A stretch of DNA of 37,493 nt from a virus (Duplodnaviria; Heunggongvirae; Uroviricota; Caudoviricetes). The stretch lies in the IMG/VR virus record IMGVR_UViG_2585427621_000010; one strand, given 5' to 3'. Made by a program: the position numbers. The stretch's first letter is position 1. Every line of letters begins with the position of its first letter. This document shows, one piece after another, positions 33,001 to 36,000 of the stretch.

Positions 33001-36000
33001 GCTCAAGGGCTACGGCCATTGCGTGTTTCAACCTCTCATTTTCCACCTCAAGCACCACACGATTAGCCTCCAGCTCTTCTATGCGTTTTTTTGCTGCTCC
33101 CAGCTCAACACGCAGCTCCTGATAGTTAATCTCGCTCATTCTCCTTCCTCCCGCACTGCTGTTTTATATGCCCGAAGCACATGCGATGTTTTTCCTGACA
33201 CAGTGCTTCTCAGAAAGAAAATTCCACTGGTGTTTATTACCAGATACGGGTCAGCAAGACGCAGCATATCCAGTATGTGATTATGTTTTCTTGTTTCCAG
33301 CACCGTACTTGAAATAAGCATATGTGACACGGGGCCGAAATCATGATATCTGATTTTCATATCATCACCCTGCTGTAAAAATTACCCGTTATCTCCTGTC
33401 GTTATTTTCTGTATGACATCACGATGCTTATTAATTTCCCGCAGCGCGGCGCATAAGCGCTCCCACTTCTGAACCTGACCTTTTGCCCGGCGCAGCTCGC
33501 GGTTAGCCACATGCAGCGATGGTAAAATCAGACCATCCGGATGCTTTCTGATGAACGACGACTGTGACTGCACTGTGACCGCCACACTTTCAGTTTTAAT
33601 TTCTTCCTGTGTTTCCGCTTCCCGGACTGGTAACGCAACACCTGCCGGCTGAGGAAAGGCTTTACCATCGGTTTCCGTTACCGATGCAGCTTTCGGCTCT
33701 GCCGGTAAATTATCGCCCGGTATGCAGTAACGATATTTACCGTCCTGATTTACGCGAATCAGACGACCTTTGCTGACAGCCATCGCCAGTGATGAATTCG
33801 CCCGGCGGGAGGTAATCCCGAACATTAACGCCAGTTCGTCAGCCGACTGAGGACCATGCTGTTCAATCGCGTTAATCAGCATCTCTGCAGTGGTTTTTGG
33901 GGCCGCTTCAGTTGCCTCACTCGTCAGCCACCACATCGACCCCTTGTTATCAGCTTCGCCACGACGCTTCAGCTTCCAGAGTTCGGTAACAGCATCGTCA
34001 CGGCTGATTTCAAGACGGGCTGCAATCTCGTGCGACGAGGCTTTTTTCAGTGCTTTCAGTGCGTCAAAAACGGTTTCCATTAAATTTTCCTCCCGGTAAA
34101 AATTACTTCTCAACTCAGACAAAACCGGCCGCCTTCCGGCGCTCATATTCCTGTTTCAGCAATTCAATTGGCGTTGGCCCTGGCGGGCGTTTGGGTGCTG
34201 CCAGTTGTCGCCGGACTGGCGGAACACTGAGGCCATTACCAACATGCTTTGCCCATTTCGTCAGCTGCCTTTCCACAAGCCGTTTTAACTCCCCTTCGGT
34301 CATCTGGCGCTCAATCCCCTTTGAACGCATCTCGAGGCAAATGTGGTACAGCACCGGCTGTGGCCACGGGTATTTATCACTCCCGTCGTACCGCCAGGAT
34401 TCATTCCTCCAGCGACGGTACTCCTCCATCACGGCATCCACCGTCAGGCCAAATGGATTTGCCCCGCTCTCCGAAATCAACGCCACAAACTCAGCCAGAT
34501 CCGGAGGCCACGTTTCACCCGCCCGGCAGCGGTCCATGCACTGACGGCAGACCTGCCGGATTTGCTGTTCAGTCATCGCGCCAATCTGAGCAATCCAGAG
34601 CTTCGACGGCGCAGCCCCGTTCTTCTGGGTCCAGCGGTTCGAATACACCTCCCCCATAAGTTCCCACAGCTTCCAGGCCGTTTCCGTTGCTGATAAATCC
34701 GTTTTCACGTTCCCACTGTTCACGTGCTGCCCGAATTTCCTGAACTGCCCGTGATGCGGTGCCACCTGGTGCTGCATGGCTTACCCCCTTGCTGACTGGT
34801 TTTACCTGTGCCCTGACGTGCTGCACGTGACGGGCAAATTTCTGCTCCCACTGAACCTGCGTGAAAACCTTCCCCTCCGCCATCCAGTAATCCCGGAATG
34901 CGGCAAGCTCAGCAGGTGTAAACTCAGGCTCAGGCAGAGCCATACCCCACACTGCTGCCCGCTGTCGAAAATCCGGCGACGGTTGCCAGACTCCAGTCAT
35001 CGGAAATTTCCCGATCGGTTCGCTCAGGCCGTCCAGGTATTCAGGTTCGGCTGTCTGCAACGACGCGTCATTCAACTCACCGGTCGTAGCACTCTCGCGC
35101 ATGCGCGCGTTATGTGTGGGGTTTAATTCTTTATCTGTATCTGTATCTGTCGTGATTTGTCGTGACATATGCGTGACGCGTCGTGACTCATCGTGACAAT
35201 CAGTGTTCTGCTTCCGCAGTCTTTCCCGCTCCCGCTGCGCTCTCTTGCGCTCTGCCGGGGATTTTGCGGTTTGCGAAACATTACCGTTATCCTCCTTCAT
35301 CACCTGGCGTTTTTCCCATCCGGAAATAAGATCACCATCCAGAACTCGCCCCTGCATTGCATGCAAAATTGAATCAATCACGTCTTCCGTCACATCAAGC
35401 GCACTTGCTAAATCTTCCGTCGTGACATCAATGTGACCACGTAGTGACACGCCGTGACATGTCGTGACATTTCGTGACGCACTCACCAGAAGGTGGATAT
35501 ACACCGCCATCACTGTTGCGATTGGCTGTCCTGAGACCCTGGCAATGGTTCGCCATTTGGGATCATTTGGCATGTCATGCCACAATCTGAGCCAGGCATT
35601 AGCCATACTCACCTCATCTGATACCGAACTTTACCCTCGAACATCCGGAAGAAATCCGGCATGAATATTGTTGGTCAATGCACGACAACAGCATTACCAG
35701 GCTGACCACCACTGTTAGTCAGGGTGCCCCAGGCGATCGCCGCTGCGACAAAATCATCCACATCTTTCACCAGCCGATCCCTCCGTTCGACGATCTCACG
35801 GTAATATTCAGAGCTGTGACTGCGCATACGGGCCACCAGCAGAGGCGGCATTGCCTTTTCGATCGCCGGTAACAGAGCCTGAATTTTTTCAACAGCATCA
35901 GGGGTGTCTTTATCCAGCCAACGGAAAATTTTCTGGGTATTACGAGCCAGGGCTTCCGGATGGCTGTCGTCGTACAGTTCCGGGAACGTCATCCCCAGCT

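Follow-up and report, generated by a model that had tools for sequence, protein, structure and literature searches.

The 37,493-nt DNA of virus record IMGVR_UViG_2585427621_000010 (the window, to whose full length all positions refer) carries two arrays of short repeats, A and B, inside the gene of a replication initiator. Our analyses indicate that this region is probably the replication origin of a lambdoid prophage of the CP-933U/Sp14 type, contained within its own initiator gene and operating by the mechanism described below. As judged from sequence comparison, a candidate origin in the initiator gene, beside a gene for a helicase loader, is strongly supported. An initial annotation of this DNA had taken the repeats for iterons marking such an origin, and this proposal is now backed by family-wide conservation, by selection at the DNA level and by a lambda-like order of elements. 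The core origin is likely to consist of array A, a (GATACA)n tract and a palindrome, and array B is a widely conserved auxiliary array with one inverted site.

Two iteron arrays within the initiator gene

Arrays were searched by direct reading, by pattern search and with Tandem Repeats Finder. On the plus strand, array A begins with CGTGAT at 35151 and continues with CGTGAC at 35161, 35172, 35182 and 35192, in steps of 10, 11, 10 and 10 bp. Array B comprises GTGAC at 35422, 35433, 35444, 35454, 35464 and 35474, in steps of 11, 11, 10, 10 and 10 bp. All eleven units share the same strand and orientation. Direct reading and pattern search both bear out what the initial annotation had described, namely five CGTGAC/CGTGAT repeats 10–11 bp apart (35151–35197) and six GTGAC repeats at a like spacing (35422–35478). 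The separation of about 270 bp that it gave is also correct, as the two arrays start 271 bp apart when measured between their first units, with a gap of ~225 bp between the arrays.

Tandem Repeats Finder returned period-10 arrays at both A and B, in addition to a period-6 TCTGTA tract at 35128–35150, beside the first cluster, where a tandem had been noticed. An independent repeat finder joined arrays A and B into one repeat family. Across the whole 37.5-kb window, chains of at least four identical 5-mers at 10/11-bp spacing are found at arrays A and B only, and 300 windows simulated with a first-order Markov model yielded no chain longer than three copies, a length that was reached in 62 of them. 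Several direct repeats of the same orientation in helical register, as expected of an iteron-type theta origin, are therefore present in the window, and they recur family-wide. Between the two arrays, an exact 8-nt direct repeat, TGCGCTCT, occurs twice with 10-bp spacing (35236–35253).

Both clusters lie within the initiator coding sequence, as had been claimed, in a minus-strand open reading frame (ORF) at 34569–35612 whose RefSeq start is at 35606. The encoded protein is composed of an N-terminal winged-helix 'replisome organizer' domain (N-domain), a disordered linker and a DnaT-like domain that binds single-stranded DNA (ssDNA). The features of the region are collected in Table 1.

Table 1. 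Positions of the proposed origin elements and of the neighbouring early genes in the window
Feature	Position	Strand	Description
Array A	35151–35197	−	Five units; coding core GTCACG, last unit ATCACG; steps 10, 11, 10, 10 bp; proposed core initiator-binding array
Array B	35421–35478	−	Six units; core GTCAC(G); coding-direction steps 10, 10, 10, 11, 11 bp; proposed auxiliary initiator-binding array
A-rich purine tract	35122–35150	−	Coding strand ACAGATACAGATACAGATAAAGAATTAAA; ~24% GC; proposed DNA-unwinding element
GC-rich palindrome	35096–35107		CGCGCATGCGCG; directly beyond the A-rich tract
Opposite-orientation iteron-like site	35388–35393	+	Reads CGTCAC; coding strand GAT GTG ACG; 33 bp downstream of array B in gene direction
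Initiator gene	34569–35606	−	345 aa from the RefSeq start; alternative GTG start 35612
Lambda-P-like helicase loader gene	34115–34576	−	Overlaps the end of the initiator gene; Pfam Phage_lambda_P, E 3e-16
YdaT/CII-like gene	35675–36100	−	Directly upstream of the initiator gene; Pfam YdaT_toxin; PHROG 163 'CII-like transcriptional activator'
cro-like gene	36097–36324	−	Beyond the YdaT/CII-like gene
LexA-family repressor gene	36422–37066	+	Beyond the cro-like gene

Conservation of the arrays among relatives

A homolog search of the initiator family returned 865 members at E ≤ 1e-3. One genome per species was scanned and 66 loci were retrieved, and arrays were searched de novo in 62 loci by a strict automated criterion that accepts any 5-mer chained at 10/11 bp. 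By this criterion, 38 of the 62 loci have two arrays, at about nt 130–180 and nt 340–450 from the start codon, and inspection of the apparent single-array loci added at least nine with a weaker or irregular array B. The mid-gene array, A, is essentially universal in the relatives, of which about 60, from Proteobacteria and viable phages, were compared. The remark that two clusters are unusual is accordingly justified in comparison with lambda, but not within the family, where two are the norm. We also looked for the absence of the repeats from functional relatives, which had been named as an observation that would count against the proposal. Each of the viable phages Escherichia Evi, Aeromonas pAEv1818, Pseudomonas phi1 and Ralstonia Hennie has the two arrays, at matching gene positions. 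In Hennie, the N-domain is 37% identical and the unit of the two arrays is GCAACG.

While the motif differs by lineage, the position, spacing and orientation of the arrays are kept. Four motif classes can be distinguished: GTCACG in Enterobacterales, Pseudomonas, Bordetella, Chromobacterium and others; GTAACG in Pantoea and Enterobacter; CGAACGC in Janthinobacterium, Rhodoferax, Variovorax and others; and GCAACG in Cupriavidus, Burkholderia and Castellaniella. An ACG core is common to all four. Arrays A and B share a core of 6 bp, with G at +5 in 87% of the units, and the flanks are uninformative.

In the viable phages, the N-domain together with its iterons is the only recognisable initiator. 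The partner gene encodes a helicase loader or a helicase in every context seen; in Pseudomonas, Aeromonas and Ralstonia phages, the N-domain/iteron module is followed by a DnaB-like or other helicase. Since the downstream partner differs (P-like, DnaB-like or other helicase), the N-domain/iteron module appears to be the unit of origin recognition, with the rest exchangeable. Some relatives carry a G38P-type C-terminus (PF09524). The DNA homology to Rac ydaU covers the C-terminal half only and ends exactly at array A, and ydaU, which has a DUF1376 N-domain, is devoid of GTCAC repeats; the arrays therefore belong to the N-domain module.

Several observations on individual relatives may be added. 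The ydaU gene of Escherichia phage Rac-SA53 (L007:2614-2646) contains a perfect 10-bp inverted repeat, TGTTCAAACA / TGTTTGAACA, which, when the gene is read in the coding sense, directly precedes the same (GATACA)n tract and shared C-terminal half. This repeat is a putative binding site for initiators of the DUF1376 type and may be related to Rac oriJ. In Pseudomonas phage phi1 (KT887557, L003:1498-2397) and in CP137943 (L159: about 3500-4397), an intact initiator ORF of ~300 codons is unannotated, and the gap in the annotation falls between the cII-like genes and the helicase gene. Plasmid records lend little weight to autonomous replication: only 11 in PLSDB matched, and these are mostly prophages within large replicons. 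Two circular records of 50.9 kb from Pseudomonas represent D3-like phage genomes, with CP137943 listed as 'plasmid'. In Pseudomonas sp. JAI111 (L037), the array-B insert is much expanded, the hairpin region encodes GHVDGITCHDMSRENVTNVTFVTCHE, and there are extra direct and inverted GTCAC copies, which shows how far this insert can grow.

Selection acts on the DNA rather than on the peptide

As a period of 10–11 bp is not divisible by three, each unit is read in another frame than the one before it, and successive units are read as V-T, S-R and C-H-D without forming a peptide repeat. In array A, close relatives from E. coli differ in the order of the 10- and 11-bp steps, and the DNA repeats are kept while the peptide changes from CHDESRRVTHMSRQITT to CHDESRICHDMSRRVTT. 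The codons of array B were compared in 23 diverged GTCACG-class loci that align without indels. Valine is encoded by GTC, threonine by ACG, glycine by GGT and histidine by CAC, each in 23 of 23 loci. The relative codon entropy is 0.13 inside array B, as opposed to 0.82 for equally conserved residues elsewhere (Mann-Whitney p=2e-6). The frozen codons of array B, together with the forced A/T-rich codons of the tract and the palindrome described below, show that selection is acting on DNA.

The number of units changes as well. At the array-B insert, the window and phage Evi differ by exactly 21 bp, corresponding to two units or seven codons. Two loci (L114 of IMG/VR and one other) have six units in array A, and the extra 10-bp unit frameshifts the initiator gene, leading to a stop at codon 157. 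The arrays therefore seem to change by slippage of single units, with the reading frame filtering the survivors.

The A-rich tract, the palindrome and the inverted site

The A-rich tract is the GC minimum of the initiator gene (32% in 40-bp windows) and also its least stable 40-bp stretch, ranking 1 of 1004 at ~3.6 standard deviations below the gene mean. The 30-mer with the lowest GC content in the gene is found between −10 and +60 bp relative to the last unit of array A in 42 of 48 loci. This low-GC tract reads (GATAAA)n, (GATACA)n or (GAAGAG)n in the family, whatever the iteron class or host GC. For a codon test, the tract was defined purely by position, as the 12 codons after array A. Aspartate is encoded there by GAT 129 times and by GAC 5 times, versus 424 and 521 times elsewhere (p=3e-34), and threonine by ACA in 42 of 51 cases, versus 124 of 724 elsewhere. 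The GC content at third codon positions is 0.20 in the tract and 0.61 elsewhere (p=1e-14), and A/T-rich codons are forced even in hosts with a GC content of at least 58%. An adjacent low-stability, A+T-rich element, the other expected feature of an iteron origin, is thus apparent both from duplex stability in the window and from the tract data of the family.

Just past the tract, inverted repeats with a stem of at least 7 bp occur in 42% of the loci, compared with 8% of the control windows (p=9e-11). The loops of these hairpins recur (TGAC, TAAC, TCACTACGTTC) and their stems vary. The site in opposite orientation near array B matches the inverted 6-mer at 5 of 6 positions in the window. In the GTCACG class, GTGAC is present at the same codon in 18 of 22 loci, and the valine is fixed as GTG in 20 of 20. 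The site co-varies with the motif class, reading CGTGAC in the GTCACG class, CGTTAC in L034 and CGTTGC in L006, L070 and L071; the CGAACGC class is without it.

An 11-nt perfect inverted repeat, ACGACGCGTCA / TGACGCGTCGT, at 35060–35070 and 35174–35184 encloses the A-rich tract and has one of its arms within array A; the frequency expected by chance is ~0.03. The relatives do not conserve an inverted copy of the iteron downstream of array A, and we therefore take this repeat to be lineage-specific or fortuitous. With respect to an RNA element, Rfam gave no match, and the promoter scan detected no sigma-70-like internal promoter.

Architecture of the initiator

RefSeq describes the product of the initiator gene only as 'DnaT-like ssDNA-binding domain-containing protein', and the NCBI name for the family is 'phage replisome organizer'. 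The N-domain has a winged-helix DNA-binding fold resembling the N-terminal domain of DnaD and the RepA_N initiator. Matches to the PHROG 'replisome organizer' and 'DnaD-like' families are weak (E 5.6e-5 to 2e-8), and Foldseek against BFVD linked the initiator to Lin1244-like, DUF1376 and 'replisome organizer' models. For the window protein and 10 diverse family members, no Pfam family was assigned to the N-domain even at E ≤ 10. As regards the G38P-family domains PF09681 and PF09524, the window protein has no Pfam match and only weak PHROG similarity, and it is not a member of the RepA_N family by sequence.

The C-terminal half contains the DnaT ssDNA-binding domain (Pfam PF17948, E 1.4e-17, aa 203-269), for which Foldseek matched PDB 4OU6 and 6AEQ with 57–58% identity. 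The initiator is not a DnaT ortholog, given a score of 93 bits for the DnaT equivalog NCBIfam NF002770, below the cut-off of 201. Homology to lambda O was rejected, as a search at E ≤ 10 detects no Phage_rep_O domain and the family profile, compared with lambda O by hhalign, gave a probability of 0.1%. The designation 'O-like gene' in the initial annotation is hence apt for position and role, but not for homology.

In the structure model, residues 136–192 constitute the disordered linker, with a predicted local distance difference test score (pLDDT) below 50, and array A and the TCTGTA tract encode a part of it. Array B encodes a beta-hairpin insert of lower confidence (residues ~46–60) between two confident helices, whose length varies across the family with the number of repeat units.

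Comparison with known systems

Gene-embedded iteron origins are textbook knowledge for lambda, and only a handful have been characterised. The annotated lambda ori has a single mid-gene array of four 18-bp iterons with 20–24 bp spacing. Beyond this array come, in order, a purine tract that is A-rich on the coding strand and an inverted repeat. As in lambda, the origin proposed here lies within the initiator gene, at the stretch coding for the inter-domain linker, and array A, tract and palindrome follow one another in the same order. The next gene encodes a homologous P-type DnaB loader, and the site and N-domain module recombines against different C-terminal halves, both as in lambda. However, the initiator is not homologous to O and its C-terminal domain is DnaT-like; only the P-like loader is homologous to its lambda counterpart. 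Iterons of ~18–19 bp at two-turn spacing, characteristic of the lambda O family, are replaced by a 6-bp core every 10–11 bp, in two arrays ~225 bp apart, one of which lies within a folded DNA-binding domain. The helical-turn spacing had been regarded as a hallmark of lambda ori, which is incorrect in view of the spacing of the lambda iterons.

Two arrays of one iteron read by one initiator are familiar from the plasmids P1 (incC/incA) and F (incB/incC), in which one array is at the origin and the other is auxiliary; P1 incA and F incC are control arrays. Unlike the present arrays, those of P1 and F flank the rep gene in non-coding DNA, have iterons of ~19 bp and are bound by unrelated Rep proteins. 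The fold of the N-domain is similar to those of the RepA_N plasmid initiators (staphylococcal pSK41/pTZ2162 RepA, PDB 4PTA) and of the N-terminal domain of DnaD. The C-terminal domain is a clear homolog of the ssDNA-binding three-helix bundle of E. coli DnaT, but, unlike in DnaT, it is fused to a putative origin-binding module.

The oriL of phage SPP1 comprises G38P boxes and an unwinding element inside gene 38, and a 356-bp fragment suffices for reconstituted replication (PMC5737612). As here, G38P is an initiator without an AAA+ domain, its repeated boxes lie beside an AT-rich unwinding element in its own gene, and it is assisted by a separate loader and helicase (PMC5737612). Boxes and unwinding element inside the gene of the initiator itself, the arrangement of the replisome organizers, are therefore shared by the two systems, as is the order of the elements. 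They differ in that the second binding region of SPP1, oriR, is tens of kb away instead of in the same gene, and in the structure of the boxes. In Salmonella phage L, an origin was proposed from sequence alone on the basis of six imprecise 11-bp repeats in gene 18 (PMC8022706), which are also short iterons inside a lambdoid initiator gene; however, that initiator is of the P22 gp18 type, the array is single, and no family-wide or codon-level analysis was reported. In the full-text literature searched, we found no description of the repeats studied here, and the Eru papers omit this module.

The origin-like element is real and under strong constraint, and it would work like the gene-embedded origins of lambda and SPP1 while belonging to neither family. 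Its new features are the 6-bp core once per turn, the bipartite layout as the family norm, the array overprinted on a folded domain, and the near-universal (GATAMA)n tract.

Proposed mechanism and alternative explanations

Monomers of the N-domain would bind the 6-bp cores side by side, one per helical turn, on one face of the DNA. Array A would thereby nucleate an initiator complex against the weakest duplex of the gene, and the A-rich tract would melt under the influence of negative supercoiling and of transcription that starts at the early promoter. The GC-rich palindrome may bound or structure the resulting bubble. The DnaT-like domain would then capture the ssDNA, and the lambda-P-like loader would deliver the host DnaB. 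Array B and its inverted site are presumably read by the same initiator, given the shared core and the co-varying inverted site. Array B is without an adjoining melting tract and is missing from a minority of the relatives, and we therefore consider it to be enhancer-like or auxiliary and not a second origin. Its preferred role would be that of a second anchoring array, which joins array A in one larger initiation complex by looping of the intervening ~225 bp.

It is also possible that array A and the tract form the origin, while array B serves as a negative-control or autoregulatory locus, by titration or by 'handcuffing' with array A, like P1 incA and F incC, or by a transcription roadblock in which the initiator on array B halts the polymerase transcribing the initiator gene itself. 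The 5' location of array B within the transcription unit of the initiator itself would suit such a role, as would the lack of an adjoining low-stability tract and its dispensability in some lineages. Moreover, an extra site in opposite orientation is typical of operators, and two-array plasmid iteron systems with one control array are well known. On the other hand, a phage with lytic replication has no obvious use for a strict limitation of copy number, and there is no promoter-like site near array B for a classical operator action. We favor looping, with negative control by array B nearly as likely; the data do not separate them.

Another explanation concerns the palindrome and the T-rich tract, which on the plus strand (35093–35150) resemble an intrinsic terminator against antisense transcription entering the early region. 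The scan flagged hairpins at 35093–35121 followed by a T-rich run on the plus strand, and the antisense geometry of a hairpin and then a T-rich stretch is also found in family members and in lambda ori. Nevertheless, the T-run is interrupted (TTTAATTCTTTATCTG), a terminator would account neither for the periodicity of the tract in hexamers nor for its fixed position against the iteron array, and the three sites given by the scan, against 1.4 expected, are weak evidence. We consider a terminator unlikely as the explanation of these elements, although terminator and unwinding-element functions are compatible and not mutually exclusive.

A protein other than the initiator, such as a host factor or the YdaT/CII-like or Cro-like product, might bind the repeats, in which case the region would be regulatory instead of an origin. 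Physical linkage guarantees the co-inheritance of the sites and the N-domain, and so does not by itself identify the reader of the sites. However, the arrays travel with the N-domain through differing neighbourhoods, with different upstream regulators and downstream partners (P-like, DnaB-like, other helicase), and they end exactly at the recombination breakpoint between the N- and C-domains. A conserved host factor is disfavoured by the change of motif between lineages that have their host genera in common, and iterons, A-rich tract and palindrome follow the classic order of an origin. Another binder is thus improbable. That the repeats are functionless, as relics of replication slippage or as the reflection of a needed repeated peptide, scarcely deserves credence: unit number does vary in slippage-like steps and an extra unit frameshifts the gene in two loci, but the 10–11 bp period excludes a peptide repeat by rotating the frame, the same DNA repeats are kept with different peptides, synonymous sites in the units are frozen across hosts of differing GC where drift is free at other conserved residues, the arrays persist from Enterobacteria through to Burkholderiales phages, each lineage with its own motif, and the frozen array-B codons effectively refute this explanation.

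Several points weigh against an initiator-driven origin as we propose it. In E. coli O157 Sakai, Sp14 DNA was amplified only via regional replication from the neighbouring Sp15 (PMC2669165), and the Sp14 copy may therefore be silent or repressed. The A-rich tract is not the weakest duplex of the early region, as the operator region is weaker. Six loci (L005, L049, L061, L064, L072 and L073) genuinely lack array B, and the distance between the arrays varies from 209 to 247 bp without clear helical phasing, so that a fixed loop geometry gains no support. We infer the identity of the binder from the winged-helix fold, the shared core and the co-varying inverted site; since the sites are inside the gene and inherited together with it regardless of function, the co-variation of sites and N-domain is no proof of recognition. 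The whole-protein model of the initiator is of low confidence overall (mean pLDDT 62). Finally, the searched literature yields no binding, footprinting or replication experiment on this initiator family.

The beta-hairpin encoded by array B could conceivably be part of the surface that reads the iterons, the same nucleotides specifying both the site and its recognising element, but we regard this as doubtful. The hairpin belongs to the folded N-domain in the structure model, and its contact with DNA is only a proposal. Its peptide is coupled to the motif class (NVTRGH..VT with GTCACG, NATERGRTQ with CGAACGC and ATQCNADATRGN with GCAACG), a class that is confounded with phylogeny in the N-domain alignment. 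A hairpin acting as the reading surface would account for this switching. If so, a change in the iteron would automatically alter the reading head, providing a self-referential route to new origin specificities.

Implications

The initiator family is widespread and uncharacterised, occurring in effector-carrying prophages of enterohaemorrhagic E. coli and in viable phages of Pseudomonas, Aeromonas and Ralstonia. Our analysis offers an exact map of the candidate origin, with 6-bp cores, two arrays, unwinding tract and palindrome, as well as four natural specificity classes. It also provides a clean example of overlapping codes, in which an array of binding sites freezes the synonymous sites of a folded protein domain; such overlap is relevant to the recoding or codon optimisation of genes, to the annotation of phage origins and to scans for selection based on synonymous substitution rates (dS). 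The origin could help to explain which O157 prophages replicate and hence amplify their virulence cargo, and it may be exploitable for engineering as a compact, DnaA-independent origin module.

Gene neighbourhood and prophage identity

The window matches an E. coli O157:H7 chromosome at 100% and is an espJ/tccP-carrying lambdoid prophage of the CP-933U/Sp14 type, an identity that follows from the espJ and tccP/espFU-type genes at the prophage end. CP-933U/Sp14 has been described as an espJ/tccP prophage (PMC2344115). At this prophage end (1–1488 of the window), espJ, which encodes a type III effector, is represented by its 3' end and is accompanied by an EspF-repeat gene of the tccP/espFU type.

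The early genes are arranged in the order LexA-family repressor (plus strand), Cro-like regulator, YdaT/CII-like protein, initiator, lambda-P-like loader and DUF1627 protein, which is a typical lambdoid early operon. The YdaT/CII-like gene marks the context of an early rightward operon, transcribing through the origin. The loader belongs to PHROG 109 'P-like helicase loader' and is annotated as 'replication protein P' in RefSeq; in BLASTP, it is 24% identical to lambda P (E 3e-6), which, in addition to the Pfam match (Table 1), confirms that the call of a P-like gene was right.

The window contains six ambiguous bases, at 9035, 9118, 9197, 9681, 36413 and 36421, the last two just upstream of the repressor start at 36422. 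In the matching RefSeq record, the genes for tail fiber, J, tape measure, portal, large terminase and major capsid (1884–20686) are marked as frameshifted or truncated. This fits a defective prophage, with assembly errors as another possibility. Three tRNA genes (Arg, Arg and Ile; 27972–28221, minus strand) lie beside the Q antiterminator gene (28432–29121), which precedes them in the direction of transcription.

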